Of a stretch of DNA of 64,000 nucleotides, positions 803-29,814 are shown piece by piece. The stretch is taken from positions 15,274 through 79,273 of the forward strand of contig JAACWQ010000003.1 in assembly GCA_009991965.1 (NCBI GenBank), read 5' to 3'. Below the pieces are notes generated by a model. It was given only the letters and a program-made list of their open reading frames with translations, ran no database searches and was not told where the DNA came from. Position numbers and translations under genes: made by a program. Within the stretch, counting starts at the first letter, position 1, and every line of letters starts with the position of its first letter. The stretch comes from Minisyncoccota bacterium. Its GTDB lineage: Bacteria; Patescibacteriota; Microgenomatia; UBA1400; PJMF01.

Positions 803-1159
803 ATGGCAGATTCTCAGTTGTCTATTGCGGATGTTTTTAAGCAATTTCGCGCACCGTTCATTGGTAATATTTTGATCATTTTGCTCCAAGTTAGCATTGC
901 TGTAGTCGCGATCAATATACTTCAGCCTGTCGTGCCTCTGTTTAATAATCAACTACTCGCAACTAACACCCTGATGCCAAAAATTTGGCTCGCACTCCTA
1001 CCAGCTCTATCGCTCATCTTTAGTCTCTTCAGCCTGCTGTTGATGTTATTCTCCCGCTCACTTGGCTCCACAATTCTCAATATTTTTGCTTGGAGCAGCA
1101 CAACGATCAACGGCATTCTATTACTCTCACTAGTACGAATAGTTCTTTTGGTAAAATAA
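803..1159 (+). CDS. Small 3-4 TM membrane protein; possibly a GtrA-like lipid-linked sugar translocase (weak)
   Basis: It is 118 aa and almost entirely hydrophobic helices. It lies between glycosyltransferase genes with 3 nt spacing. Confidence 0.3.
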   Translation: MADSQLSIADVFKQFRAPFIGNILIILLQVSIAVVAINILQPVVPLFNNQLLATNTLMPKIWLALLPALSLIFSLFSLLLMLFSRSLGSTILNIFAWSSTTINGILLLSLVRIVLLVK

Positions 1160-1161
1160 CT

Positions 1162-2217
1162 ATGCTTTTTTTTCTCAGTTTTTTGCTGGCATTCTTAATC
1201 ACACCAATGGTGATTAAATTGTATAAAAAACATGGCTGGCTTGATGATCCAAAAAAACAAGTACATGCCAAAAAAACACATAAGATAGCGGTGCCGCGCG
1301 GTGGTGGGATTGTCGTGTTCTTTGCTATTCTCGTGTGTAGTCTTTTATTTTTACAATTTGATCAATACTTGCTTGCTATCTTGGCTGGTGCTGGCATTTT
1401 GGCGATAGTTGGTTTTCTTGATGATATCTACGATTTGCACCCCTTCCCCCGCCTACTTGCAAACGGTTTTGCCGCACTACTCGTTGTGGGATCTGGAATT
1501 GGTATCGCGTACGTCAGCAACCCGTTTGGTCCTGGCGTGATACATCTTGATCAGCCACAAATATCCTTTGCTTTTTTTGGTGAGATACGGAATATCTGGC
1601 TGCTTGCCGATCTGTTTGCAGTGCTGTTTATTATCTGGAACATAAACATTGTGAATTGGTCAAAAGGAGTTGATGGACAATTGCCAGGTTTTGCGGCCGC
1701 GGCGCTTGTATTTATTGGTTTGCTTTCAAGCAAGTTTGTTGGCGACCCCACCTCATTTAACACCGCACAACTCGCATTTATTGTGGCAGGCGCTTTCACC
1801 GGTCTCTTACTCTGGAACTGGTACCCGCAACGGATTATGCCGGGCTATGGGGCAGGATCACTAGCCGGTTTTTTCTTGGGTGTACTTGCTATTCTATCTG
1901 GCGCAAAACTAGCAACGACTCTGATGGTTCTCGCTATCCCAACTGCCGACGCAATTTTTACCATAGGCAGAAGGTTGTATGCAGGAAAATCACCATTCTG
2001 GGGTGACCGCGGTCACTTACATCATAAATTATTTGACACATTTGGATGGAGCAGACAAAAAATTGCAATCTTTTATAGTTTCTCGAGTATCGCGCTTGGT
2101 ACGCTCTCTCTCTATTTGAACACTATCGGAAAATTGCTTACAATTGCGATAACCATGAGCCTCGTGTTTGGTGTATTATTCTGGGTAAAGATCAAAAAAA
2201 GTACTCAAAAAAAATGA
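1162..2217 (+). CDS. Glycosyltransferase family 4 polyprenyl-phosphate N-acetylhexosamine-1-phosphate transferase (WecA/MraY superfamily)
   Basis: The DDxxD-like motif 'LDDIYDLHP' is present, the protein has multiple TM helices, and the conserved His is near the C-terminus (HLHHKL). The ATG at 1162 immediately follows the upstream stop. Confidence 0.75.
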   Translation: MLFFLSFLLAFLITPMVIKLYKKHGWLDDPKKQVHAKKTHKIAVPRGGGIVVFFAILVCSLLFLQFDQYLLAILAGAGILAIVGFLDDIYDLHPFPRLLANGFAALLVVGSGIGIAYVSNPFGPGVIHLDQPQISFAFFGEIRNIWLLADLFAVLFIIWNINIVNWSKGVDGQLPGFAAAALVFIGLLSSKFVGDPTSFNTAQLAFIVAGAFTGLLLWNWYPQRIMPGYGAGSLAGFFLGVLAILSGAKLATTLMVLAIPTADAIFTIGRRLYAGKSPFWGDRGHLHHKLFDTFGWSRQKIAIFYSFSSIALGTLSLYLNTIGKLLTIAITMSLVFGVLFWVKIKKSTQKK

Positions 2218-3185
2218 TGAAGAAATCCCCACTAATTCTGCTTTTTTTACTCATAAAATCTGCTCGTCCAAGACAATGGGTCAAAAATTTCTCGCTCTTT
2301 GCCGCACTCGTGTTTTCTGGCTTTTTGTTTTATGACCCAATTGACGCTCCTTCATATTTTTGGACGGTAACGCTTGCTGCTATCACTTTCACACTGGTTA
2401 CCTCTGCAATTTACATTGCCAACGATATTATTGACAAGGATGCCGATGCACAACATCCGTTTAAGAATAAACGACCAATTGCTTCTGGAGCACTTCCAGT
2501 TTCTTTGGCCAAAATAGCAGTCGTCGCACTGCTTGCCATTGCGGGATTTTTTACCCTCTACTTCTCACTCTTCTTTAAGCTGCTTATTTTGCTCTACGTT
2601 GTGTTGCAAATTGCCTACTCGAAAAAACTCAAACATATCCCCATTCTGGATGTTGCATCAATCGCACTTGGGTTTTTGATTCGTATTTATGCTGGATCCG
2701 TAGTTGTTGATTTGCACATGAGTGTTTGGTTCTTACTCACGGTGATATCCGCATCACTCTTTCTTGCGGTTGGGAAACGGCAGAGCGAGCGAACACTGCT
2801 GCTAGGAAATCCCGATGTCTCTGTAGGCTCCACTCGCAAAATTCTCAAACGATACAGCGAGCGTTTGCTTGACCAATATACTGCCATGTTTGCTACCGCT
2901 ACCTGGCTGACGTATGCAATTTTCACCTTCCAGAATGAAGTCGTTGTCCCGCAATCTGAATTTGCAACGCTCTTTCAACTTTTGCCAAAAACCCTGCATA
3001 CCCAAAAGTGGCTGATGATCTCAGTGCCGTTTGTGATTTTTGGAGTCATGAGATATTTGCAGTTAGTCTATGAGAAAAATCAGGGAGAATCACCAGAGCG
3101 CGTATTATTTAATGATAAGCCGTTATTGATTACACTCTTTCTCTTTGGCGTCAGCGTCATCTTTATCCTCTACCTACTCGCATAA
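2214..3185 (+). CDS. UbiA-family prenyltransferase, decaprenyl-phosphate 5-phosphoribosyltransferase (DPPR synthase)-like
   Basis: The N-terminal 'ARPRQWVKN' motif, the UbiA motif 'NDIIDKDADAQHP' and polytopic membrane topology are present. Its ATGA start overlaps the stop of the upstream gene. Confidence 0.65.
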   Translation: MMKKSPLILLFLLIKSARPRQWVKNFSLFAALVFSGFLFYDPIDAPSYFWTVTLAAITFTLVTSAIYIANDIIDKDADAQHPFKNKRPIASGALPVSLAKIAVVALLAIAGFFTLYFSLFFKLLILLYVVLQIAYSKKLKHIPILDVASIALGFLIRIYAGSVVVDLHMSVWFLLTVISASLFLAVGKRQSERTLLLGNPDVSVGSTRKILKRYSERLLDQYTAMFATATWLTYAIFTFQNEVVVPQSEFATLFQLLPKTLHTQKWLMISVPFVIFGVMRYLQLVYEKNQGESPERVLFNDKPLLITLFLFGVSVIFILYLLA

Positions 3186-3188
3186 CTT

Positions 3189-4457
3189 ATGCAGCGATTT
3201 GTAGAACGTTACTACAGCCCACTACTTGTATTGCTCATTGCTATTGCTTTTTTTTCGCGCCTCTACCGCGTACATATTCCAGAGAAATATATGTTTGATG
3301 AGGTATATCACGCCTCTACAGCAAAGTTGATTGCCCACAATGATCCACGAGCTTACGAGTGGAACGCCAAGTCTGATGAGAAGGATACCGCCATAGATTG
3401 GCTACATCCCCCTGGAGCTAAATTACTACAGGCAGGTAGTATGTTTTTGCTTGGAGAAACAAGCTTCGCATGGCGACTGAGCTCGGTGGTATTTGGCACA
3501 CTTGTCATACTAACGACTGTGTGGCTTGCGCAAGCGTTGTTTGAGGACAAACGCCTCTCACTGCTGGCTGGCGTGTTTGCTGCAAGCGATGGTTTGTTAC
3601 TCGTACAGTCGCGTATTGCGATGAATGATATTCATGTAACTTTTTTTATTTTGCAGACGCTCTTGTGGTATTGGTTATATCGCAAGAAAAAACTTCGTAA
3701 ATACTTTGTGGCAGCTGCAGTCATGGCTGGCTGCGCAATTGCGAGTAAATGGTCTGGAGTGTTCGCAATTGGTGTGGTTGGTTTGTTTGAAGTTGCTAGC
3801 GTGCAAATTACACAACATCGAATCAAAAACCTACGGCGAATTTTGCCCAACCTTGGTTTGTTGCTTTTGATTCCAGCAGCTCTATACCTAGCGAGCTACG
3901 GTCAAATGTGGCTGCAAGGTAAGCCATTGAGTCATTTTGTCGAACTACACAAACAAATCTGGGCCTATCAAACTACGCTAACTGCAACTCATCCCTATCA
4001 ATCGACCGCTCTGCAATGGTTTTTTAACATACGGCCAGTTTGGGTTGCAGTTGAATATGGAGTTGGCACGAGAGCAGACATATACGCTTTTGGTAATCCA
4101 GCACTGTTTGTTTGGGGAGCTATCGCGGTTATTTTGACAGCTGGAGTACTTGTATGGAAATTTAAAAAATCATCGCCCGCACTTCTGTTTCTGTTTGTTA
4201 GCTATCTTGTTGTTTGGGCACCCTGGGCATTCTCACCCAGAGTAATGTTTTTTTACCACTACGCACCAGCTGTTCCACTCCTCAGTATTATCCTGGCCTA
4301 TTGGGTGATGAAGCTAAAAAAGAAACGTGTTGTTATCAGCTGTATCAGCGGGAGCATCATACTTGCTGCTGTAGTTTGGTACCCGCACTGGACATTATTG
4401 CCTGTCTCAAATGCATTTGCAGACCAAGTGTACTTTCACTTTACAACGTGGAAGTAG
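3189..4457 (+). CDS. GT-C fold membrane glycosyltransferase, family 39 (PMT/ArnT-like)
   Basis: The N-terminal loop motif 'FDEVYHA' is present. The protein has 10 or more TM helices and a short C-terminal periplasmic region. Confidence 0.7.
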   Translation: MQRFVERYYSPLLVLLIAIAFFSRLYRVHIPEKYMFDEVYHASTAKLIAHNDPRAYEWNAKSDEKDTAIDWLHPPGAKLLQAGSMFLLGETSFAWRLSSVVFGTLVILTTVWLAQALFEDKRLSLLAGVFAASDGLLLVQSRIAMNDIHVTFFILQTLLWYWLYRKKKLRKYFVAAAVMAGCAIASKWSGVFAIGVVGLFEVASVQITQHRIKNLRRILPNLGLLLLIPAALYLASYGQMWLQGKPLSHFVELHKQIWAYQTTLTATHPYQSTALQWFFNIRPVWVAVEYGVGTRADIYAFGNPALFVWGAIAVILTAGVLVWKFKKSSPALLFLFVSYLVVWAPWAFSPRVMFFYHYAPAVPLLSIILAYWVMKLKKKRVVISCISGSIILAAVVWYPHWTLLPVSNAFADQVYFHFTTWK

Positions 4458-15087: not shown

Positions 15088-17340
15088 TCAGAGATGTCTG
15101 CGCCATTTGCGGAAAAGCTCAAACGCACGCGTCATCCAATACCATTGTGTCAGCGGAATATCTTGTGCTTCTAGGTACTGTACTTCTCTGCCCCCAAATC
15201 CGCGCTTGAAGAGCGATACGCCTGCAAAACGATGCGCATCCATACCTGGAGGCGCCACGCCCCACAGATTGTAACTCGTACAACCAGCTTGTTGTGCTTC
15301 AGCAATCACGCGCCACTGTACTGCGTACGCACCAGGCAACTTGCCATTTTCTGGTGTCGAAATACCATAGTGGTACACCGCCTGCTTGTGATACGTCAGC
15401 ACAAATGCGGTCGCCAACAATTGTGTGCCCTGATATGCAGAAACCAAGAAGGCCTGATTTTCTTGTGCAAAAATCTGGAACTGTTCAAATAAAAATTTGT
15501 AACTAAACGGCACAAAGTGATGTCGCTCTGCCACCAATCGCTGTTGTTCATAAAAATTTTGAATGTCCTTGGGATCGCGCGAAACTTCTGTTCGAATACC
15601 TTCGCCCTCCGTCTTTCTAATTGCTGAGCGAGTATTTTTCCGCATGCCTGCCAGAAGCTGCTCCTCACTTTGAGTAATATCTATTTCAATTGTCCGATCA
15701 GCCGTTACATGCATAGCTGCTTTGAGCGTGCCGAGCCGCGCGACTTCTGCGCGAGCTATTTCGTCGTCTACCAGCTGTGGACGAAAACGAATAAATGAGC
15801 AGTGTTGCTGCCGGACAATAGTTTTTATCTCAGAAAACATTGCTGCTACTGCCCGAGGTTCATCCCAATCGAGCACCGGACCACCAGGAAAGCTGCAGTA
15901 CGAGCCACGCCGAGCACGCTCAAAAATGCCGAGTGCTACTCCAGTCAACGATCCATTTCGATATAACCCAAGGCGAATAATTTTATTCCCCAGCCGTTCT
16001 TGAAATACCCCCCAATGCCAAGATTGTAGAAAGTTTGCCTCTGGACGATCAGCAATCCAGTTCTCCCAGATCTCTTTGTCGATAACTTCTTGAACCATGT
16101 ATTCAGGTGCTTTCTCGAGCAATTGCAGAATAGTTGTGGCCAATCGAACCGCGGTTGCCACACTCACTTGCGCATGAGTTGGAAGGGTGAAAACTGAGCG
16201 AGCAAGTTTCTCTGCTTGTGAACACGAACCAGAGTGATAGGCAGAATCCCAAACCACACTCCCACTATCAACTGCTGCGCGATACCAGCGGTCAGTGAGA
16301 TAAAAGTTGCTCTTTTTCAGATCAGCCGCTAATTGATCTGGATCTTGGACCACCAGCGGAACACGCAGAAGTGAATAAGGGCTTGTTTGCAAATCTGGAG
16401 CGAGTAAGTATTTTTTGAGTAGGCGAGCGTACACCGTCGCAATCAATGTCCGATGGTTCAACTGAGACGGCAAACGCCCCAACTGTTCCAAAACTAATTT
16501 TGCCTGGCCAACTGAGAGCTTTTCCAACACTAGAGTCATGCGGAGCACGGGGGTTGTGATAATACCGAGCTTCTGCGCTCCACGCTGCAGTACTTTACCT
16601 ATACCGAGTGAAAACGTTGCGCGAATAGAAACAGTTAGTAGCGGATACACAGCCTGTCGCCAAGTACTTCGTGAGCGTAATTGTTGCGGAGCTCGTTCAG
16701 TAGCAAGTAAACCCTGACGAAAAAGGCAGCAACCGCCAGCAACCGCATCAATTATTTTGTCTCGCCCAAATGATGTAACTAGTACATGGCCAAAACTTCC
16801 AAGCCGCCCGCCCGACGGCGCTACGCCACCAAACGCTTGCGCCAAATCTTCTATGAGCAGGAGACCGCGTTCGTCACACCAAGTGCGAATTGCTGCGACA
16901 TCAGCGGGATATCCTAACAAATGTTGGACCAAAACGACTTTTGCTTCTGGATTTTTTTCATATGCAGTTTGTAGTGTTGTGACATCTAGGTTGGGCGAAT
17001 GCTCACCGATATCGACAAATGCGGGCAGCATGTTGGCACCAATGATCGCCTCTTCTATTGCTGCACAGCTGAATGCTTGAGTCAGTACTTTCGTTCCTGG
17101 AGTGATCGGCAAGTTCTGCAGTGCAAATTGGATTGCATCTCTCCCCGTTGCAAAAAAATGGGGTTTAGAAAAATCAGGAAAGATCTCTTGTAACTTCTCG
17201 GCTAGCAAAGCTTGTGTTTCGGCACTATTAGGAGGAAATACGTACCACCAGAGTGTCTGACATGCGAACGTAAAAGAGTAGTTGGAGCCAAGACTGCCAA
17301 ACACTGGCTTGTTTTTTTTCATAGTATCTTTACTAGCCAC
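15088..17340 (-). CDS. Bifunctional protein: N-terminal DegT/DnrJ/EryC1-type PLP aminotransferase domain fused to a C-terminal FemAB-family (aminoacyl-tRNA-dependent) transferase domain
   Basis: The N-terminal roughly 330 aa match the DegT pattern (GRDAIQFAL...AFVDIG...LIEDLAQAFGG...VTSFGRDKII, with the Lys). The C-terminal roughly 420 aa match FemAB ('FLQSWHWGVFQE', 'GMRKNTRSAIRK', 'AYAVQWRVIAEAQQAGCTSYNLWGV'). Confidence 0.7.
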   Translation of the reverse strand: MASKDTMKKNKPVFGSLGSNYSFTFACQTLWWYVFPPNSAETQALLAEKLQEIFPDFSKPHFFATGRDAIQFALQNLPITPGTKVLTQAFSCAAIEEAIIGANMLPAFVDIGEHSPNLDVTTLQTAYEKNPEAKVVLVQHLLGYPADVAAIRTWCDERGLLLIEDLAQAFGGVAPSGGRLGSFGHVLVTSFGRDKIIDAVAGGCCLFRQGLLATERAPQQLRSRSTWRQAVYPLLTVSIRATFSLGIGKVLQRGAQKLGIITTPVLRMTLVLEKLSVGQAKLVLEQLGRLPSQLNHRTLIATVYARLLKKYLLAPDLQTSPYSLLRVPLVVQDPDQLAADLKKSNFYLTDRWYRAAVDSGSVVWDSAYHSGSCSQAEKLARSVFTLPTHAQVSVATAVRLATTILQLLEKAPEYMVQEVIDKEIWENWIADRPEANFLQSWHWGVFQERLGNKIIRLGLYRNGSLTGVALGIFERARRGSYCSFPGGPVLDWDEPRAVAAMFSEIKTIVRQQHCSFIRFRPQLVDDEIARAEVARLGTLKAAMHVTADRTIEIDITQSEEQLLAGMRKNTRSAIRKTEGEGIRTEVSRDPKDIQNFYEQQRLVAERHHFVPFSYKFLFEQFQIFAQENQAFLVSAYQGTQLLATAFVLTYHKQAVYHYGISTPENGKLPGAYAVQWRVIAEAQQAGCTSYNLWGVAPPGMDAHRFAGVSLFKRGFGGREVQYLEAQDIPLTQWYWMTRAFELFRKWRRHL

Positions 17341-18728
17341 TGTGGCATCCGCCCTTCAACTAATACTACCGTGTCTGCAGAAAGTGTCTGTATTCGCTGC
17401 AGTATTTCTGCTCTACTCGCAAACAATGTTGTAGCGAATTGTTTTGCAAATGCTTGTTTGCCAGCTTCCCCAAGATACCAAACTTCGCTGACATAGGCCG
17501 TAGCTTCGTGCGCCAGCTTGGTGTGCACTTTTCCTGATTCTGTTCCCAAGTCGATAATACCAGAGGTAAGTAAGATTTTTCTTGGAGCGACTTGCTGTCC
17601 AAGCAACTGCAATGCAGCCGAAAAACCATCTGGATTGCTCGTGCCCCCATCATCGATAATACGTGTGCCCGATTTTGTTGTACGCGTACGGATCCATTTT
17701 TCAGTGGGGACAAATGACTCCAGGCGAGTAGTAATTTGCTTCTCAGACAGGCCAAAATTTTGTGCTACAGCACGTACCGCCCGTATTGTATTTCCATAGT
17801 GATCACCAATGATTGCTGTTGTCACCTTTGGACCCTTGGCCAACCAAGTTTTTTCTACCTGCAGGGAGGCATGATTTTTAACCGCAGCAACAATCTTCAA
17901 AGCAGATTCATTGACACAATATACTTTCGCTTTTTCTGGCAGTGCTTCAAGCAACTCAGCTTTTGCCTGTGCAATTCTTTCTTGTGATCCAAAAAGCTCA
18001 AGATGTTGTTTTCCTAGCCCCGTCAGAATCGCAAGATCTGGTGGCAATACTGCAGTTAATCGAGCAATTTCTCCCGGACAATACGCTGCGTACTCCAAGA
18101 CCAATGTCTTAGCTGTTCCCAAATTTTTTAGTAAATAACGTGCAATTCCCAGTGCGGTATTGACTGATCCAGGCGTCGTACAAACACTCCCTCGCTCAGC
18201 TAAAACATGAGCCAACAATTGTTTGGTTGTTGTTTTACCGAAACTGCCAGTAATTCCAATTATGAAAACTTTTTTTGCGCGCAACAGATCCCGTACGCGA
18301 TGAAGATAATACGTCGTGAGTAACCAAACGACCCCATTCATGGCAATCGCCAAAAACAACAAAACTACCGGTGTGAAGAAATAGAGCAACACAGGTAATA
18401 CAAATAAACGACCTACTACCAAGGCTGGCACCGCAGTCAGCCAAGGGATTAACAGGTAGATGCTCAAAGTAACAAACAATAAACAGGAAACCAGCAGAAG
18501 CTTGACCCGCAGCGTTTTTACCGGACGCTTAAAAGTCATTGGTCGAACGAGGGCTAGAGAAGGCAGCAAATGTAAAATAACTTGACGACCAGAGAGTGAG
18601 TTCAGGTGTGCGTGCAGACGATCAAGTCGATACTCTTTTTGTTGTAGCAAACCAGACCACCATAGTAGCCCTGCGAAAAAATGTATCGACCAGCCAAACA
18701 AATAAAAAAGAAAAATTACGCTAAGCAT
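17319..18728 (-). CDS. MurF-like Mur-ligase (central and C-terminal domains) with an N-terminal polytopic membrane domain in place of the UDP-binding domain
   Basis: 'IIGITGSFGKTTTKQLLA', 'NTALGIA', 'DDGGTSNPDGF' (MurF-type DDSYNAN region) and 'LVEGRM' are present. The first roughly 150 aa contain 4-5 predicted TM helices. Confidence 0.7.
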   Translation of the reverse strand: MLSVIFLFYLFGWSIHFFAGLLWWSGLLQQKEYRLDRLHAHLNSLSGRQVILHLLPSLALVRPMTFKRPVKTLRVKLLLVSCLLFVTLSIYLLIPWLTAVPALVVGRLFVLPVLLYFFTPVVLLFLAIAMNGVVWLLTTYYLHRVRDLLRAKKVFIIGITGSFGKTTTKQLLAHVLAERGSVCTTPGSVNTALGIARYLLKNLGTAKTLVLEYAAYCPGEIARLTAVLPPDLAILTGLGKQHLELFGSQERIAQAKAELLEALPEKAKVYCVNESALKIVAAVKNHASLQVEKTWLAKGPKVTTAIIGDHYGNTIRAVRAVAQNFGLSEKQITTRLESFVPTEKWIRTRTTKSGTRIIDDGGTSNPDGFSAALQLLGQQVAPRKILLTSGIIDLGTESGKVHTKLAHEATAYVSEVWYLGEAGKQAFAKQFATTLFASRAEILQRIQTLSADTVVLVEGRMPQWLVKIL

Positions 18729-19467
18729 GTACTGCCTCTAGGATAAGCGCAGCGACTTTTTCTGGGTGGGTAAATGGCGACCCGTGTCTCGCGCCTGTAA
18801 TTAGTTGCAGCTTAGCATTTGGGATCCCCGCAAGCAGCCGATCGGCAAACTCCATCGGAGTAATGTTGTCATTTTCTCCCCAGATTACGGTGGTCGGAGC
18901 AACAATGTTTTTGAGCTCAGAATCGACCTCATGCTCGATCACTCTACGCATCGTTTCACGCATCATCGTATTTGCTTCTAGGTAATCTCGCTCGCCCGCC
19001 ATTCTATGTAGTAGCTGGCGTAGTGTGCCAGAAGTTGACAGTTTCTTTCCAAGTTTTGCCAAATGATAAAAGCCGTTTCGTTTTAATCGAGCAGAGAGGC
19101 TGTGGGAGCGAAAACCAGCGCTAGAGATTAAAATTAATGTTTGCACTTGCTGAGGAAAACGTGCGGCGTATGTAGTAGCCAGGTGTCCACCAAATGAGTG
19201 ACCAACGAGAACAAAATTTTGCTTGCCAACCAGCTGCTGCAAAAGCCACTGGACATATTCATCAACTCCCCAGGGCTGCTCGAGCGGTAATTCAAAACCA
19301 GGTAGTTTTAAAACAGATGCACGGACACCAGCCTCCTGTAGTAACCGAACTACTGGCTGCCACTTGGCGCTGGGAGCTGCGTCTCTTGACCATCCGTGGA
19401 GAATAATGACTTCTGGCGCTGTACTCGACATACCACCATTATACGCACCTCTAGAGCAAAAACGCAC
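18721..19467 (-). CDS. Alpha/beta-fold hydrolase
   Basis: The nucleophile elbow 'VGHSFGGH' is present. The His is in the C-terminal 'GARHGSP'. It overlaps the MurF-like start by 8 nt. Confidence 0.6.
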   Translation of the reverse strand: MRFCSRGAYNGGMSSTAPEVIILHGWSRDAAPSAKWQPVVRLLQEAGVRASVLKLPGFELPLEQPWGVDEYVQWLLQQLVGKQNFVLVGHSFGGHLATTYAARFPQQVQTLILISSAGFRSHSLSARLKRNGFYHLAKLGKKLSTSGTLRQLLHRMAGERDYLEANTMMRETMRRVIEHEVDSELKNIVAPTTVIWGENDNITPMEFADRLLAGIPNAKLQLITGARHGSPFTHPEKVAALILEAVHA

Positions 19468-20250: not shown

Positions 20251-22308
20251 GTGAGTCCAGCAGATTTCGCTGCAGGCTGGTGGCGCTTGCGACATCGTGG
20301 TGATGATGCCTGGGGATTGCTTACAAGGTCTGGTCAAATCACCCAACTTGAGCACGTACAAGCGTCAAATGGTAGCAGTCCCATACACGATCTAAGAAAC
20401 ATCCATACAGCTGCTAACTTGCGCGTCGCTCATGATCGCTACGTGACGAGTGGTCCACGTAGACCAGAAAATGCCCAACCATTTTTCCTTTCCGACGGAG
20501 CATTCACGTTGGGACTGGCACACAATGGAAATCTCCCAGTTGCAGTTGTTCAGCGCCTGCGCGAGCTACTGCACAAACCGTTGCCAGTTATCGCCAGCGA
20601 CTCTTGGGTGATGACCCAGTTTCTTCTCGAGTCGAGACAGAAGTATAAAACGTGGGAGGAGACATTTGTTGCCATGTTGCCACTCTTGCAAGGGGCATTT
20701 TCTTTGGCTTGCTTGACGGATGAAAATGTCATCTACGCCATCCGTGACCCTTGGGAAATCCGCCCACTCTGCCTAGGCAGGAAAAATGAAACTTGGGTCG
20801 TAGCGTCAGAAAGCGTAGCACTTGCCAATATGGGAGCCCAGTACGTTCGTGAGGTAGAACCTGGCGAAATAGTCCGACTAAATCCAGATGGGAGCAGCGG
20901 ATCGACGCTGTATGCCCAAGCCGACGAGCGACGCTGCGTGTTGGAAACAATTTACTTTTCGAAAAATGAGAGTGTTCATGACGGACAGACTATTCGAGAG
21001 CAGCGCAGGCGACTGGGAGAACTAGTCGGAGCTCGATTTAAAGAGAAAAAAATTGCCATTGATTGTGTGATTCCCATCTTAAACTCTGGCAAGCAAATGT
21101 CGATTGGGGTATCACACGCCCTAGAGATGGATAATACAGAAGCCATTAGTATTGCAACAGAGCTACGCTCATTTATTCAAAATACTCCCACCGCAAGAAC
21201 AGAAATAGTCAATCAAAAACATGTCGTTGATGGTGGTTATATCCAAGGCAAACGTATTCTCCTCTGTGACGACTCGCTGGTACGCGGAACCTCGCTAAGC
21301 GCTCTATTGGCAAAAATTCGTGAGCATAATCCAGCAGAGATTCACATTGTGCTTGGATCAGAACCAGTGGTAGACATCTGCGAATGGGGTATTGATTTGC
21401 CAACACGCGAAGAGCTTTTTGTTTTTCAGCTGCTGCAAACAAGACCTGACTGGAACAATACTGAAGAATACGAGGCATGGCTCTCCAAAGTAGAGCATCT
21501 GGTTGCAAAAAAACTCGGAGTAGATTCAGTGACCTACCTTGATAGAACCTCAGTCAATAAAGCACTCAAACGATCGGAAAATCAGCTCTGCCGACACTGC
21601 TTTGGTGGATCAGATCCTATCGAAAATAATCCCCCAACATATCGAGTGGAGCACTTGGAAGCTTTACGCAAGCAAAAAGTGCTGTTTTTTGCATCCGGTA
21701 GTGGCACCAACGTCGAGAATGTTTTGCAGCAGATGCAGGACGGGAAAATTCTTGCCAAACCAATTGGGGTAGTAACCAATAAACGGGACGGCGGAGTGAT
21801 GGATAGGGCCAGAGCATTTGGAGTCGAAACAACAGTTTTTTCTGCCAAGACATACGAACTAGATATTCTTTCATTTATAGTTTCACACCCAGAGGGGATT
21901 CCTGACGTAATCGTGCTAGCCGGATGGATGCGCATACTGTCTGATGAATTTCTCGAAAAGATAGAAAAACTTGGCGTGACAATCGTCAACCTGCATCCAG
22001 CACTCCTCTCTGGAAAAGGAGCGGGTTTTGTTGCTACCGCAGCAGGACGCGTGCCCGAACTACGAGGGGCCGATGTTATAGAACAAGCGCATCAAAAACC
22101 TCTTGCAGAAATGCCAGTTACGGGCGCAACGGTACATCAGGTGCTTCCAGCCCACAAGGTTGATACGGGCAGAGTTATTATCAAAGAGGAAGTAGCACGT
22201 CGTGAGGATGAAACGTTAGCTGAGCTTACGGCTCGAATACACAAGGCTGAGTATCGTATACTGCCAATTGCAATACAACGGATATTGCTAGAACGTTTGA
22301 AAGTATGA
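20251..22308 (+). CDS. Fusion of amidophosphoribosyltransferase (PurF: Ntn glutaminase + PRTase) with phosphoribosylglycinamide formyltransferase (PurN-like). The annotated GTG start is probably downstream of the true N-terminus.
   Basis: PurF motifs: 'LRHRGDDAWGL', 'QPFFLSDGAFTLGLAHNGNL', 'WVVASESVAL', 'LLCDDSLVRGTS'. PurN motifs: 'VLFFASGSGTNVENVL', 'VIVLAGWMRILS', 'NLHPALL'. The in-frame upstream extension encodes 'HCGVLATCG', which matches the PurF N-terminal catalytic Cys. Confidence 0.75.
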   Translation: MSPADFAAGWWRLRHRGDDAWGLLTRSGQITQLEHVQASNGSSPIHDLRNIHTAANLRVAHDRYVTSGPRRPENAQPFFLSDGAFTLGLAHNGNLPVAVVQRLRELLHKPLPVIASDSWVMTQFLLESRQKYKTWEETFVAMLPLLQGAFSLACLTDENVIYAIRDPWEIRPLCLGRKNETWVVASESVALANMGAQYVREVEPGEIVRLNPDGSSGSTLYAQADERRCVLETIYFSKNESVHDGQTIREQRRRLGELVGARFKEKKIAIDCVIPILNSGKQMSIGVSHALEMDNTEAISIATELRSFIQNTPTARTEIVNQKHVVDGGYIQGKRILLCDDSLVRGTSLSALLAKIREHNPAEIHIVLGSEPVVDICEWGIDLPTREELFVFQLLQTRPDWNNTEEYEAWLSKVEHLVAKKLGVDSVTYLDRTSVNKALKRSENQLCRHCFGGSDPIENNPPTYRVEHLEALRKQKVLFFASGSGTNVENVLQQMQDGKILAKPIGVVTNKRDGGVMDRARAFGVETTVFSAKTYELDILSFIVSHPEGIPDVIVLAGWMRILSDEFLEKIEKLGVTIVNLHPALLSGKGAGFVATAAGRVPELRGADVIEQAHQKPLAEMPVTGATVHQVLPAHKVDTGRVIIKEEVARREDETLAELTARIHKAEYRILPIAIQRILLERLKV

Positions 22309-25631: not shown

Positions 25632-26561
25632 GTGTTTATGATTCGATTTCAAGACGTCTCGAAAGAGTTCTCGCCTAACAAGTTTGGTGTCAAGCAAATT
25701 AGCTTCGCTGTCGACAATGGTGAGTTTGTTTTTATTACTGGAACATCGGGTAGTGGCAAAACTACGCTCATGCGTCTCATCATCCGTGAGTACGCGCCTA
25801 CCTCTGGAGAGGTATCACTGTTCAATGAGCAGTTGGCAACAATGTCACAAAAAAAAGTGTCAGAACTACGTCGTAAAATTGGTGTGGTATTTCAAGATTA
25901 CAAATTGCTGCCAGAATTAAACGTCTGGGAAAACATCGCACTTCCCCTCGAAATTGTTGGACAACCGCAGGCAGAAATTGAAAGCCGCGTAACCGATTTA
26001 CTAAAGCTGATTGGTTTGATTGAAAAACCCTACCTCTTCCCTTCTCAACTTTCTGGCGGCGAAGCGCAACGAGTTGGTATTGCTCGAGCGCTTGCACTTG
26101 GACCTGAGCTTATTTTTGCTGATGAGCCAACAGGCAACCTTGACGCCGAAAACACCCAGGCTATTGTCGATTTATTAAAGAAAATAAATCAGCTGGGCAC
26201 CACAGTTTTGTTTGCTACACACGACCTGAGTTTAACCAAAGCAGGACAAATCAGAATCCTTAATCTTGATGCCGGCTCGCTCATCCACGACTCAAAACCA
26301 AAAAGCACGGCTACTCCAGCCGTCAAAAAAGTTGTCACGCCACCAGAAAGTAAACCCACGATTACAGCTAAAAAGAAAAGTTGGCTTGGAAAGCTCTTTA
26401 CAAAACCGGAACAAACAACAAAAAAACCAGTTGAGAATCCAGTCGAAAAACCAGAAAACCAACCAAGGAAAAAGAAGGAAGAGAAAAAATCAAAAAAAGA
26501 AAAAGCCACGAGTAAAAAAGTCACCAAACAAGTAGTAACTTCACAGGAAGCCCTGGAGTAA
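25632..26561 (+). CDS. ftsE: Cell-division ABC ATPase FtsE with a roughly 90 aa Lys/Pro/Glu-rich C-terminal tail
   Basis: Walker A '[11 protein letters not shown]', signature '[15 protein letters not shown]' and Walker B '[11 protein letters not shown]' are present. It is immediately followed by ftsX. Confidence 0.85.
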
Positions 26562-26564
26562 CCT

Positions 26565-27437
26565 ATGCAATCTTTTGCCAATGCCCTTACCACCATGCGA
26601 CGGACACCCTACCAGTCGCTCGCGGCCTTATTGATGGTCTCAGTTACTTTTTTTGTCGGATACCGCCTCTCGTTCGTTCTGTCTGGTGCGCATCTTGTGC
26701 TGTCGCATTTTGAATCATCCCCACAGGTGATCGCTTTTTTTAAACTCGATACTGACAAACAAGCAATGGAAACGCTCTCAAAATCTCTCACGAGCACAGA
26801 AAATGTCAGCGACGTACGTCTGATTACCCAAGAGCAAGCGTTGAAAGATTATGCAAAAGAGTATGACGACTCACCACTCTTGCTAGAGCTCGTAACGGCA
26901 GACATTTTGCCTGCAAGTGTCGAAGTCTCAGCAAGTAACGTAGAAACGCTCACCAAACTTGCAGAAGATCTCAAGAAAGAAAAAATCATCGAAGATGTTG
27001 TGTTTCAACAAGATATTGTCGAACAACTGAGCAACTGGACCAAAGCCTTACGAATTGCCGGTCTTGTCGACGTTGGCATTCTCAGTTTTGCATCATTTTT
27101 AACCATCACCATTATCATTACGCTCAAAGCCGCAAACAAAAAATATTCTGTCACTATCATGCGTCTTATCGGCGCCTCCAACTGGTATATCAACAAACCA
27201 TTTATAGTCGAAGGTATTCTCTATGGGGCACTCGGCGCATTGCTCGGTTGGATTGCGATCACGGTCATTCTGCTCTATCTCACACCAACGCTGACCACCT
27301 TTTTCTCGGGCATCATTGCATTTCCTATCCCGCTCGAGTTCTTGCTCCTACAACTGGGAGCGGGCATGCTTGTCGGCGCTCTCCTCGGGGGGTTTGCGAG
27401 CTTTGTCGCTACCAACAGATTTGCAGCGCGTGCGTAA
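26565..27437 (+). CDS. ftsX: Cell-division permease-like protein FtsX
   Basis: It has 4 TM helices with a large first extracytoplasmic loop. It lies 3 nt after ftsE, and its N-terminal 'ALTTMRRTPYQSLAALLMV' is FtsX-like. Confidence 0.8.
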   Translation: MQSFANALTTMRRTPYQSLAALLMVSVTFFVGYRLSFVLSGAHLVLSHFESSPQVIAFFKLDTDKQAMETLSKSLTSTENVSDVRLITQEQALKDYAKEYDDSPLLLELVTADILPASVEVSASNVETLTKLAEDLKKEKIIEDVVFQQDIVEQLSNWTKALRIAGLVDVGILSFASFLTITIIITLKAANKKYSVTIMRLIGASNWYINKPFIVEGILYGALGALLGWIAITVILLYLTPTLTTFFSGIIAFPIPLEFLLLQLGAGMLVGALLGGFASFVATNRFAARA

Positions 27438-27447
27438 GTTTTTAGCT

Positions 27448-28626
27448 ATGAAATTTTTCTTTCTAACCTGGCTACTCTGGTTCGCTTTTGGCACGACGCC
27501 TGTGTATGCACTCAGTTGCGAAGAGTTTGTTTGTAGTGACACAAATGATGTTGATTGCTTAAAGGACAAGCGGAGTTGTCTGGAATCCAAACTCAACGAA
27601 ACAAAAGATCAACGCGTAACACTTACCAACACGATTAGCATCATCAATGGCAAAGTTCAAATTCAAGAAGTTCAGATCCAGCAAACAGAGGCAGAACTTT
27701 CATTGCTTGAAGCACAAATTGGTGATCTCAGCCAGCGGATTGGCGGACTCAACTTATCACTGGACCGCTTGACCACTCTCTTGGTTGAACGGATTCAAGC
27801 AGAGTACAAACAAACACGAATTAATTCGAATCTACTCTTTTTAAAAACAAGCTCTGCCACAAACTTCTTTTCTCAATTGCAATATCTCAAAGAAGCCAGA
27901 CTGCAAACAGCGGTCGCAATGCAGCGCGCAGAAGCTCAACGACTTGAATTTGATCAGCAAAAATCTACCAAGGAAGAGAAACAAAAAGAAATTGAAGTCG
28001 TCCAAACACGACTTGAGCGCGAACAAAATGTTTTAGCAAAACAACGAAACGAACAACAGTACTTGCTCAAAGAAACCAAAAGCAATGAGACTGCATATCA
28101 GGCAGAGCTCGCAAAAACACTTGCTGAACTTTCTGCCATCCAATCGATTATCGCTGGTAAAGGAAGCGAGACTGAGGTTGGTTCGGTAAATACTGGAGAT
28201 ACTATTGCAAGCATTATCAGTGGCGCGAGCGTCTGCTCGACTGGTAGCCATTTGCACTTCGAGGTTGCCAAAGATGGTGTAACACGTGACCCAGCGTCAT
28301 ACCTCAGCTCAATTTCTCCTGTTTGGAATAACGAACCAGATAGTCCATTTGGGTTTGGTGGCAACTGGGACTGGCCGGTTTTCAACGCCGCTCGCATTAC
28401 CCAAGGTTTTGGCATGACCTACTACGCACGCGTGCGACGAGCGTACGGTGGATCTCCGCATACTGGCATCGACATGCTCAGCACGTCTAGAGACTCGCGT
28501 GTCCGCGCAGTGCAACCAGGCAAACTCTATCGTGGCAGCATTGCCTGCGGTGGTGGCAACCTACGCTATGTTCGAGTTGAGCAGAGTGATGGGATTAGCA
28601 CGTATTATTTGCATGTGAATTATTAG
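27448..28626 (+). CDS. EnvC-like coiled-coil protein with a non-canonical/permuted peptidase M23 (LytM) region
   Basis: It has a signal/TM N-terminus, a long coiled coil, then 'GSHLHFEV' (the M23 HxH half) upstream of 'SPHTGIDM' (the HxxxD half). The Met at 27448 is preferred over the ORF start at 27316 because of the overlap with ftsX. Confidence 0.6.
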   Translation: MKFFFLTWLLWFAFGTTPVYALSCEEFVCSDTNDVDCLKDKRSCLESKLNETKDQRVTLTNTISIINGKVQIQEVQIQQTEAELSLLEAQIGDLSQRIGGLNLSLDRLTTLLVERIQAEYKQTRINSNLLFLKTSSATNFFSQLQYLKEARLQTAVAMQRAEAQRLEFDQQKSTKEEKQKEIEVVQTRLEREQNVLAKQRNEQQYLLKETKSNETAYQAELAKTLAELSAIQSIIAGKGSETEVGSVNTGDTIASIISGASVCSTGSHLHFEVAKDGVTRDPASYLSSISPVWNNEPDSPFGFGGNWDWPVFNAARITQGFGMTYYARVRRAYGGSPHTGIDMLSTSRDSRVRAVQPGKLYRGSIACGGGNLRYVRVEQSDGISTYYLHVNY

Positions 28627-28674
28627 ATTTATCTCGCTACACTTCCCGTCATCTTCGGCACATAAACTCAATGT

Positions 28675-29814
28675 GTGCGAAGGATTTTTATACAAATCAC
28701 ATTTCTAGTACTATTGAGCTTGTCGCCCGTTGAAATTCTGGCGCAAACAAATGTTGTTGTCTCCGAAGTCTTTCCAGCTCCAGACACAGGGGGAAATGAA
28801 TGGGTAGAGATATATAACCAGGCCTCTAGTTCTGCCTACCTCAGCAACTGGACCCTTTCAGACACACTGAGTTCGCCCAGTATCTTGCACCAATTTGTTG
28901 ATTTTGTTTTGGGTCCCTATGAAGTTTTTGTGCTCAACCTCAGTGGCAGCAAACTAAATAATACTGGCGACACTGTTGTTCTGAGTGACCCGAGCGCGAC
29001 TTATTCCGCGACCCTCACCTACCCAAATGCTACCAAAGGATTGTCTTGGCATCTCAACCTCACCACAAACGAAGTATATGAAGCAACGCCAAGCGCAGGA
29101 GTAGTGGCCACGGTTAGTGCGGTTGTTGCTCCAACACCAACTCCTTCTCCTACAGTCACGCCAATTCCAACGCCGACCGCTACTCCAGCAACCATCCTCA
29201 CAAAGCCAGAAGTGAGTCTCTCTGAGATTATGGCCTGCCCAATCTCAGGTCAACCAGAATGGATCAAGTTGTTCAACTCTGGTGAAGCTCTAGAGATTAT
29301 AAATTGGGTTGCAACAGATAGTACAGGCAACACACGCAGATTCTCTGGTGTACTACCCAAGGATAATTACACAATTTTTAGCTGGACAAGTAGTATGCTC
29401 AATAACACAGGGGATAGTATAAAAATCACCACAGATTCCGGCATAGTTGTCGATCAGGCAAGTTACAGCGAGTGCGTTAGTGGCAAAAGCCTCAGTCTCC
29501 TCGGGGAAGTCTGGCAGCCACCACAGCCAACCCCGACTCCAGGAGTTGCTAGCGTTTTATCTACTCTGAACACAACGGCAACACCTGCAGAAACTGGAGA
29601 AGTATTGGGCAGCACAACACGACAAACACCATATCCATACTCGCTCAGAGAATTTGCAATTAGTCATACAGCATCAAGCGCTGGATTACCAACAAAGCAA
29701 TATACTCGAATAACAACTCCACCGAAACAAATACCTTCTTCCTCCAGTGGTATACTGGGAGGTCTACTTTTAATCATAAGCAGTTTGTATGCCCGAGGAA
29801 AATCTTTCATCTAA
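28675..29814 (+). CDS. Cell-surface protein with two lamin-tail-domain (LTD)-like repeats, a Pro/Thr-rich linker and a C-terminal TM anchor
   Basis: It has a GTG start and the signal peptide 'MRRIFIQITFLVLLSLSPVEILA'. The LTD motifs 'NEWVEIYN...NNTGDTVVLSD' and 'PEWIKLFN...NNTGDSIKITTD' are present, plus the 'PTPTPSPTVTPIPTPTATP' linker and a terminal hydrophobic segment. Confidence 0.55.
   Translation: MRRIFIQITFLVLLSLSPVEILAQTNVVVSEVFPAPDTGGNEWVEIYNQASSSAYLSNWTLSDTLSSPSILHQFVDFVLGPYEVFVLNLSGSKLNNTGDTVVLSDPSATYSATLTYPNATKGLSWHLNLTTNEVYEATPSAGVVATVSAVVAPTPTPSPTVTPIPTPTATPATILTKPEVSLSEIMACPISGQPEWIKLFNSGEALEIINWVATDSTGNTRRFSGVLPKDNYTIFSWTSSMLNNTGDSIKITTDSGIVVDQASYSECVSGKSLSLLGEVWQPPQPTPTPGVASVLSTLNTTATPAETGEVLGSTTRQTPYPYSLREFAISHTASSAGLPTKQYTRITTPPKQIPSSSSGILGGLLLIISSLYARGKSFI

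Follow-up and report, generated by a model that had tools for sequence, protein, structure and literature searches.

MurF is the UDP-MurNAc-tripeptide:D-Ala-D-Ala ligase and an antibiotic target, and the enzymes from MurC to MurF are taught as soluble and cytoplasmic. MurT/GatD, the lipid II isoglutaminyl synthase, includes a ligase (MurT) that lacks the canonical Mur N-domain and acts on lipid II at the membrane, and PgsB/CapB, the poly-gamma-glutamate synthetase of the Mur-ligase family, is N-terminally membrane-anchored in a membrane complex. Here we examined a 64,000-nucleotide stretch of DNA from a Minisyncoccota bacterium (contig JAACWQ010000003.1), referred to as the window, in which a minus-strand gene encodes a MurF-class ligase with a predicted N-terminal membrane domain. 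From sequence and structural modelling, we consider it probable (roughly 60%) that this gene encodes a MurF-step peptidoglycan-precursor ligase in an alternative, membrane-embedded architecture. An earlier note on this DNA had recognized the membrane MurF itself, and this stands; it had missed the hydrolase partner, the placement of the gene in the murF slot elsewhere, the wide distribution outside the Candidate Phyla Radiation (CPR), and a subtype that lacks an invariant Arg and is linked to DegT and FemAB.

Compared with canonical MurF (TIGR01143; PDB: 1GG4, 4CVK, 3ZL8), the window protein and its homologues, called TM-MurF here for their transmembrane (TM) region, have the same central ATP-binding and C-terminal domains in sequence and predicted fold, with a shared P-loop, Glu, His, Lys at the carbamyl-lysine position, and DDxxxxN motif. 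In other lineages, homologues of the window protein also occupy the murF slot of division and cell wall (dcw) clusters and, outside the CPR subtype, have a ddl neighbour. In contrast, the soluble N-domain of canonical MurF, ~70 residues that bind the UDP end of the substrate, is replaced in the TM family by a membrane domain of 150–200 residues, and canonical MurF has no counterpart of the alpha/beta-hydrolase that accompanies the TM family. MurT/GatD is similar in pairing a Mur-ligase homologue without the canonical N-domain with a separate partner bearing a hydrolase-type catalytic triad; however, MurT is soluble, carries a Cys4 insertion and a DUF1727 C-terminal domain, has a glutaminase as its partner, and amidates the stem peptide instead of extending it. 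PgsB/CapB differs in its single anchor helix, its partners PgsC and PgsA, and its location outside peptidoglycan gene clusters. Natural Mur chimeras, MurD-FtsW and MraY-MurG, tether Mur enzymes to membrane proteins (Shirakawa et al. 2023, PMC10214165) and likewise bring a cytoplasmic step to the membrane by gene fusion, but they join two complete known enzymes, whereas in TM-MurF a novel domain replaces part of MurF. That survey, limited to proteins of >600 amino acids (aa), describes the MurF N-terminal region as a variable interaction surface, calls MurC-F cytoplasmic, and contains neither "transmembrane" nor "hydrolase" in its text. Our literature search, which was incomplete in coverage, found no description of a membrane-embedded MurF, of its N-domain, or of the hydrolase pairing; TM-MurF proteins are already present in databases under the name MurF.

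The ligase gene and its catalytic region were assigned as follows:

17319..18728, minus strand: membrane-embedded MurF-class ligase gene, ATG start, 469 aa, stop codon at 17319-17321
17322..18272, minus strand: MurF-type central and C-terminal ligase domains, residues 153-469, by residue mapping against E. coli MurF
18231..18257, minus strand: P-loop G158-I-T-G-S-F-G-K165-T166, read from the sequence and invariant in alignment A1

Profile searches and the predicted fold together showed that residues 153-469 belong to the MurF class of ATP-dependent ligases, in agreement with the earlier description of the protein as MurF-like. Pfam detected Mur_ligase_M (PF08245) at residues 159-288 (90 bits; cutoff 24) and Mur_ligase_C (PF02875) at residues 351-459 (40.3 bits; cutoff 28.4), and nothing beyond these two. 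MurF ranked first by NCBIfam, by Foldseek, and when a profile was run against PDB sequences. The murF model TIGR01143 scored 173.8 bits, and murD, murC, and murE scored 61, 46, and 34 bits, respectively. With the A1 family profile, seven MurF sequences of the PDB scored 165–200 bits and the MurF part of fusion protein 8f5d scored 131, while the next families (MurD, MurE, MurT) reached at most 77 bits. The ten best PDB matches of the AlphaFold2 (AF2) model in Foldseek were all MurF (E = 8e-20 to 2e-16), followed by pMurE, MurT, cyanophycin synthetase, and MurE/C/D at E >= 2e-13.

The earlier note had called for a comparison with the MurF, MurT, and CapB/PgsB branches, and in this comparison the ligase grouped with MurF. 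The MurT models NF052464 and NF045635 gave only 18.6 and 15.1 bits (cutoff 800 each), and the partner of the window ligase is an alpha/beta hydrolase, not a GatD glutaminase. No PgsB/CapB model occurred among the 22 NCBIfam matches at E <= 0.01, and the neighbouring genes encode the hydrolase and a DegT-FemAB protein. Membership in either family was therefore rejected.

Mapping on E. coli MurF revealed that K165, E212 (the Mg-binding Glu), H242 (the catalytic His), K256, D359/D360, and N365 are kept in the window ligase, which also has the DDxxxxN motif. The P-loop Lys is present in 87/87 family members and, together with the equivalents of E. coli MurF E158 and H188, is universal in the family; in the window protein these residues are K165, E212, and H242. 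By alignment, K256 (H242 + 14) occupies the carbamyl-lysine position and is >=90% conserved in A1. The residues reportedly invariant among Mur ligases are the P-loop Lys, a Glu, a His, two Asn, an Arg, and an Asp, and this set is incomplete in the window ligase: the Arg and the HNxxN asparagines are missing. Specifically, W345 (about 17694-17696) replaces the Arg equivalent to E. coli MurF R316, a position that we take to correspond to MurC R327, among the residues invariant in all Mur ligases, and Y311 and T314 replace the two Asn.

The interval emphasized by the earlier note, 18278-18728, equals ligase residues 1-150. All the peptides it quoted were found in the 469-aa open reading frame (ORF), with MLSVIFLFYLFGWSIHFFAGLLWW at residues 1-24, LLLVSCLLFVTLSIYLLIPWL at 77-97, and VVLLFLAIAMNGVVWLLTTYY at 121-141, and the P-loop stretch GITGSFGKTTTK at 158-169; the ATP-binding motif, from residue 158, does begin only after the hydrophobic region. 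The canonical MurF N-domain is indeed absent, as TIGR01143 aligned over profile positions 72-405 only. A membrane domain in its place is supported by the 19-residue Kyte-Doolittle means of the N-terminal region, which peak at 1.96, 2.52, and 2.60 (usual TM threshold, 1.6), and by the helices of the AF2 model (pLDDT 93, pTM 0.89, from a 43-sequence alignment). In true residue numbering these are 2-30 (TM1), 73-98 (TM2), and 101-152 (TM3 and stalk), with three short helices within residues 35-61. The domain can be divided into the following predicted parts:

18273..18728, minus strand: N-terminal membrane domain, residues 1-152, from hydropathy and homologue conservation, replacing the canonical MurF N-domain
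18645..18725, minus strand: TM helix 1, residues ~2-28, outside to inside; Kyte-Doolittle peak 1.96, AF2 helix 2-30, N-terminal tail without Lys or Arg
18501..18644, minus strand: basic cytoplasmic loop 1, residues 29-76; conserved columns in alignments A1 and A2, mean of 10.3 Lys plus Arg
18438..18500, minus strand: TM helix 2, residues 77-97; Kyte-Doolittle peak 2.52, AF2 helix 73-98
18273..18428, minus strand: TM helix 3 and stalk, residues 101-152; a single AF2 helix in both models, with invariant P120

The best topology predicted for the domain has three spans (~2-28, 77-97, and 101-124) with the N-terminus outside and the C-terminus inside. The count of at least four hydrophobic helices given in the earlier note thus did not hold, although the hydrophobic N-terminal region did: the fourth hydrophobic stretch (~121-141) is a continuation of helix 3, since AF2 helix 101-152 runs unbroken from the last span to the strand that opens the ATP-binding domain. 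Family means of Lys plus Arg are 10.3 for loop 1, 0.1 for the 4-residue loop 2, and 3.5 for the linker past helix 3. This distribution places loop 1 and the ATP-using ligase domain both in the cytoplasm, and the number of spans should therefore be odd. Larger homologues have one extra helical hairpin, giving ~5 spans with unchanged sidedness. Of helix 3, only the last ~25 residues have a counterpart in MurF: they match the helix located ahead of the P-loop strand in T. maritima MurF (residue 66 onward).

Loop 1 carries two motifs, Q29-Q30-K31-E32-Y33-R34-x-D36-R37 and K67-R68-P69-x-x-T72-x-R74. In the CPR alignment, Q29, K31, E32, Y33, R34, D36, R37, R68, P69, T72, and P120 are invariant or >=90% conserved. 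Across phyla, the conserved elements are Q-[QLI]-x-x-Y-x-x-x-R directly past TM1, K-K/R-x-x-x-x-T-x-R directly ahead of the next hairpin, and P-x-E/D where the last span ends on the cytoplasmic side; each of the three faces the cytoplasm. Two Parcubacteria loci (L063 and L075) encode N-domains of ~100 aa without a strongly hydrophobic segment, which nevertheless keep the family motifs (LQQEEYDLDRF, K..WTPKA, and P-L-D); a hydrolase gene precedes the ligase gene at both loci. Since these variants retain both motifs and hydrolase, the conserved core of the domain appears to be its motifs and not its embedding in the bilayer. This observation, together with the invariant polar motifs on the cytoplasmic side, argues that the domain is more than a mere anchor.

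The membrane domain occurs only fused to a MurF-class ligase, in at least 1,337 representative clusters. When 1.84 billion representatives were searched with a profile built from just the N-domain, 1,337 proteins matched at E <= 1e-3, of which 420 reached E <= 1e-10. Among the top 150 matches of this profile, the new full-length proteins were 407–599 aa with the domain at residues 1 to ~150–200, and the short matches were fragments, ending inside the TM or ligase region. Nearly all of the best 120 homologues of the ligase (25–97% identity, mostly 94–100% coverage) have 2–5 hydrophobic segments before the P-loop. Pfam gave no consistent match for the membrane domain among 28 members, and a PDB fold search with it gave no significant match (best E = 5.4).

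The ligase gene is the middle member of an overlapping three-gene operon, and its overlaps on both sides showed an arrangement expected of translational coupling to the upstream hydrolase and the downstream DegT-FemAB fusion:

18721..19467, minus strand: alpha/beta serine hydrolase, predicted cytoplasmic, upstream of the ligase; Abhydrolase_1 (70.7 bits) and Abhydrolase_6
15088..17340, minus strand: DegT-type pyridoxal phosphate (PLP) aminotransferase fused to a FemAB-type aminoacyl-tRNA transferase, 750 aa, overlapping the ligase stop

The hydrolase, which likely starts at M13 (19431), has a stop codon that overlaps the ligase ATG by 8 nt (ATGCTTAG), and GAGG lies 6 nt ahead of this ATG. Signal counts for internal promoters and terminators within the operon were at or under shuffle expectation. 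The nucleophile elbow (GxSxG) of the hydrolase reads G-H-S91-F-G-G and is accompanied by D200 and H228. Ser91, Asp200, and His228 are kept in 74/74 aligned partner hydrolases and the HGW oxyanion motif in 71–74 of the 74, so that the partner is, as judged from these residues, catalytically intact. A specific function could not be assigned to it, as NCBIfam and the PDB returned only generic esterase, BioH, and meta-cleavage-hydrolase relatives, far below cutoffs.

Pfam matched DegT_DnrJ_EryC1, FemAB, and Acetyltransf_6 on the downstream protein. The same cassette is found in relatives down to ~30% identity with DegT and FemAB either fused or separate, and in most relatives they are separate genes. 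Because DegT/FemAB occupies the place of Ddl in CPR, it could supply the unit added by the ligase. A precedent for linking PLP chemistry to the tRNA-dependent making of peptide bonds is DhpH from dehydrophos biosynthesis, in which a PLP enzyme is joined to a FemX-like aminoacyl-tRNA transferase. By description, it shares the domain logic of DegT-FemAB but belongs to another pathway and another PLP family.

In order to compare neighbourhoods, we scanned one genome per GTDB species and annotated 80 family loci by phmmer, with the window proteins and the E. coli dcw cluster as seeds. A same-strand hydrolase ORF ends at most 450 nt upstream of the ligase in 72/80 loci and lies within ~1 kb in 77/80; judged from stop-to-stop spacing, the two genes abut or overlap almost everywhere. 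Ddl is at most 3.5 kb away in 46 of these loci, and DegT and FemAB are nearby in 21. No Ddl was found near the 21 DegT/FemAB-linked loci or in the 64-kb window, and none of the 80 loci contained a second MurF-like gene.

The hydrolase-ligase pair occurs in CPR, Chloroflexota/Anaerolineae, Poribacteria, Omnitrophota, Acidobacteriota, and Actinomycetota, as well as in Bdellovibrionales, Micavibrio, and other Alphaproteobacteria. It is very abundant in gut Clostridia and in Muribaculaceae/Bacteroidales: for each of the two groups, 8,000 candidates were scored and more than 7,900 of them matched at E <= 1e-10; the matches listed were ~500–550 aa, and the named ones were annotated 'MurF'. Gut contexts were ordinary housekeeping surroundings with the order hydrolase-ligase-Ddl, one with CotJ spore-coat genes and another with IleRS/LspA. 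As a separate observation, the taxonomy labels of the metagenome-assembled genomes (MAGs) at L010, L012, L013, L015, L018, L033, L043, and L048 look wrong: they read 'uncultured Pseudomonadales' or 'uncultured Gammaproteobacteria', yet these loci have a CPR-type cassette and CPR-like GC.

Several loci place TM-MurF in the murF slot of a dcw cluster. In Poribacteria (L085) the order is rsmH-ftsI-murE-hydrolase-TM-MurF-ddl-mraY-murD-ftsW-murG-murC, and in two Chloroflexota chromosomes (L061, L069) mraY directly follows TM-MurF. Three Microgenomates loci (L020, L048, L049) read murC/murD-hydrolase-TM-MurF-DegT-FemAB-mraY-ftsW-murG, with murA, murB, and murE in the same gene run at L049, and TM-MurF is likewise in the slot at L092, L134, L143, L151, and L169. 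In an alphaproteobacterial MAG (L029), a Pseudobdellovibrionaceae (L052), and a Micavibrio (L072), no murF lies between murE and mraY, and TM-MurF stands beside the cluster. At two of these loci (L029 9474-9932 and L072 18962-19432), an ORF of 152–156 aa without a Pfam match is alone between murE and mraY, the normal place of murF.

To examine displacement, metagenome contigs were scanned with CPR MraY and the region upstream of mraY was inspected in 80 loci, with ~10 kb either side of each match; co-occurrence was judged by exclusivity in the dcw slot. The region upstream of mraY contained:

44 loci: short soluble MurF, 22 with Ddl and 0 with the hydrolase
9 loci: TM-MurF with the hydrolase
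6 loci: truncated, with DegT/FemAB beside mraY
3 loci: a third ligase type, then hydrolase-DegT-FemAB
9 loci: no ligase
9 loci: too short to tell

TM-MurF and soluble MurF were found together upstream of mraY in none of the 56 informative CPR dcw loci. Since they never occur together there, the two forms are alternatives in one slot, as expected if they do the same job. Two further observations concern the other occupants of this slot. The third ligase type (418–424 aa; L100 1538-2794, L129 1167-2441, L153 2440-3714) has its P-loop near residue 36, with only an aromatic/hydrophobic helix (MFQKLKYFFYFPIAWYFRFFAAI) ahead of it. It retains the PGR motif, and the genes that come next are hydrolase-DegT-FemAB-mraY. 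The soluble MurF of many CPR Microgenomates is short (355–430 aa; many loci in L097-L168, e.g., L135 8604-9866), with the P-loop at about residue 58–82 versus 107 in E. coli, indicating that its N-domain is also reduced.

By sequence, the TM-MurFs are divided into two subtypes, one linked to Ddl with all checked Mur-ligase invariants kept, the other CPR-restricted and linked to DegT and FemAB. The Arg equivalent to R316 (motif P-H/G-R-L-E) is present in 57/57 Ddl-linked TM-MurFs and in 38/38 soluble CPR MurF-slot ligases, and in 0/38 TM-MurFs followed by DegT/FemAB. Both subtypes occur within Parcubacteria; therefore, the split is not purely phylogenetic. The window ligase, with no R316-equivalent Arg and no Ddl neighbour, falls in the CPR DegT/FemAB-linked subtype, whose active site and supply genes are unlike those of canonical MurF. 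The unit that this subtype adds may not be Ddl-made D-Ala-D-Ala.

As a MurF-step ligase, the enzyme would turn the C-terminal carboxylate of a MurNAc-tripeptide precursor into an acyl phosphate and complete the stem peptide with its last residue or residues, working beside MraY on the inner side of the membrane. In the predicted structure, helix 3 continues as a rigid stalk from the membrane into the ligase domain. The basic and aromatic cytoplasmic motifs (QQKEYRxDR and KRPxxTxR) would hold the substrate by its carrier end, as the lost N-domain does in canonical MurF. The membrane domain would have the hydrolase as a stoichiometric partner, and the CPR subtype would use DegT and FemAB in place of Ddl.

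Several findings weigh against this proposal. The TIGR01143 score of the window protein is under the trusted cutoff of 288.6. The Arg is lost throughout the DegT/FemAB-linked TM-MurFs and no Ddl gene is nearby, which may mean a chemistry other than canonical D-Ala-D-Ala addition. The MurF reaction as taught offers no role for the hydrolase that constantly accompanies the ligase. Finally, in the lineage of the window the cassette lies away from any dcw cluster, the window itself contains no dcw genes, and a separate soluble MurF and Ddl could be encoded beyond the window in the source genome.

One alternative, the main idea of the earlier note and in our view unlikely, concerns the carrier: the same peptidoglycan enzyme could act on a lipid-linked precursor (lipid I or lipid II), with MraY first moving phospho-MurNAc-tripeptide to undecaprenyl phosphate and the basic interfacial motifs binding the pyrophosphate. 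The membrane domain may instead only tether the enzyme to the membrane, and the computed evidence is compatible with both. The UDP-binding N-domain is wholly gone, its replacement presents conserved Arg/Lys-rich motifs at the cytoplasmic interface, and the stalk helix keeps the ligase domain near the bilayer at the usual place of the N-domain. MurT offers a precedent, and PDB chains of MurT are among the structural relatives found by Foldseek; the FemAB family also includes members that act on lipid II. Three observations speak for a carrier that is still UDP, which we prefer, although they are not decisive. The TM-less variants at L063 and L075 show, by retaining motifs and hydrolase, that the family can do without embedding in the bilayer; the invariant Gln and Tyr suggest recognition of uracil, for which such residues are typical, and a polyprenyl pyrophosphate would not require them; and the ligase lies upstream of mraY, leaving the order of the canonical pathway unchanged.

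We consider it improbable that the cassette is an accessory pathway in the source genome, directed at a product other than the standard stem peptide, such as a branched peptide or a wall glycopolymer bearing an aminoacylated amino-sugar, while a soluble MurF and Ddl elsewhere carry out the housekeeping step. Such a role would fit the position of the window cassette outside a dcw cluster, the loss of the invariant Mur-ligase Arg in its subtype, and the presence of a DegT-family enzyme (Pfam and NCBIfam matches), since these normally make amino sugars; moreover, soluble MurF is the commoner arrangement in related CPR (44/56 informative dcw loci). Yet in other Microgenomates (L020, L048, L049, L092, L134, L143, L151, and L169) the identical cassette is flanked by murC/murD and mraY and is the sole source of a MurF-like gene, and in the dcw slot the cassette and soluble MurF are mutually exclusive. 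Nine CPR dcw loci have no ligase upstream of mraY, which makes dispersed mur genes normal there.

A further and more doubtful idea concerns the CPR subtype: the hydrolase, the Arg-less membrane ligase, the PLP aminotransferase, and the tRNA-dependent FemAB could together replace Ddl and MurF, so that the stem peptide would be completed at the membrane in a Ddl-independent and partly tRNA-dependent manner, possibly on a lipid-linked precursor. If this four-enzyme replacement were true, the last step of a highly conserved bacterial pathway would be both re-ordered and chemically different.

The ligase gene model is genuine, and there is next to no chance that a frameshift or misassembly joined a membrane-protein ORF to a truncated murF, the artefact against which the earlier note had cautioned: no evidence in its favour was found, the architecture is shared by >1,300 representative clusters and by gut-bacterial proteins in the thousands, homologues keep the start position and length, the N-domain profile found no independent full-length protein, only fragments as short matches, and the AF2 helix runs unbroken across the domain junction.

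If the MurF-step reading is correct, a large slice of bacteria, including CPR, Chloroflexota, predatory Bdellovibrionota and Micavibrio, and very abundant gut Clostridia and Muribaculaceae, would rely on an integral membrane enzyme for the last Mur-ligase step. This enzyme would have a different substrate-holding domain and would need, or at least always keep, a serine hydrolase. The picture of how the precursor is handed over to MraY would change, a new lineage-selective surface for drugs and probes would become available, and there would be a handle on how CPR finish the stem peptide without an adjacent Ddl. Automatic 'MurF' annotations would then cover three or more architectures. Both the membrane domain and its partner hydrolase represent uncharacterised families, each with a clear context that lends itself to testing.

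Other genes of the window were noted in passing. A plus-strand gene at 20251-22308 encodes a PurF-like protein of 685 aa (glutamine amidotransferase and phosphoribosyltransferase) with a C-terminal formyltransferase domain; the syntenic gene at L001 encodes 481 aa and has no formyltransferase Pfam match. At 1090-4457, plus strand, consecutive genes encode a GT4 (MraY/WecA family) protein, a UbiA prenyltransferase, and a PMT/GT39 glycosyltransferase, a trio that suggests a polyprenyl-linked glycan or protein-glycosylation pathway. Finally, at 25632-29814, plus strand, FtsE-FtsX-M23 peptidase genes are followed by one for a Lamin-tail-domain protein, and these resemble the patescibacterial ABC/LTD operon mentioned in the Lipocone preprint.

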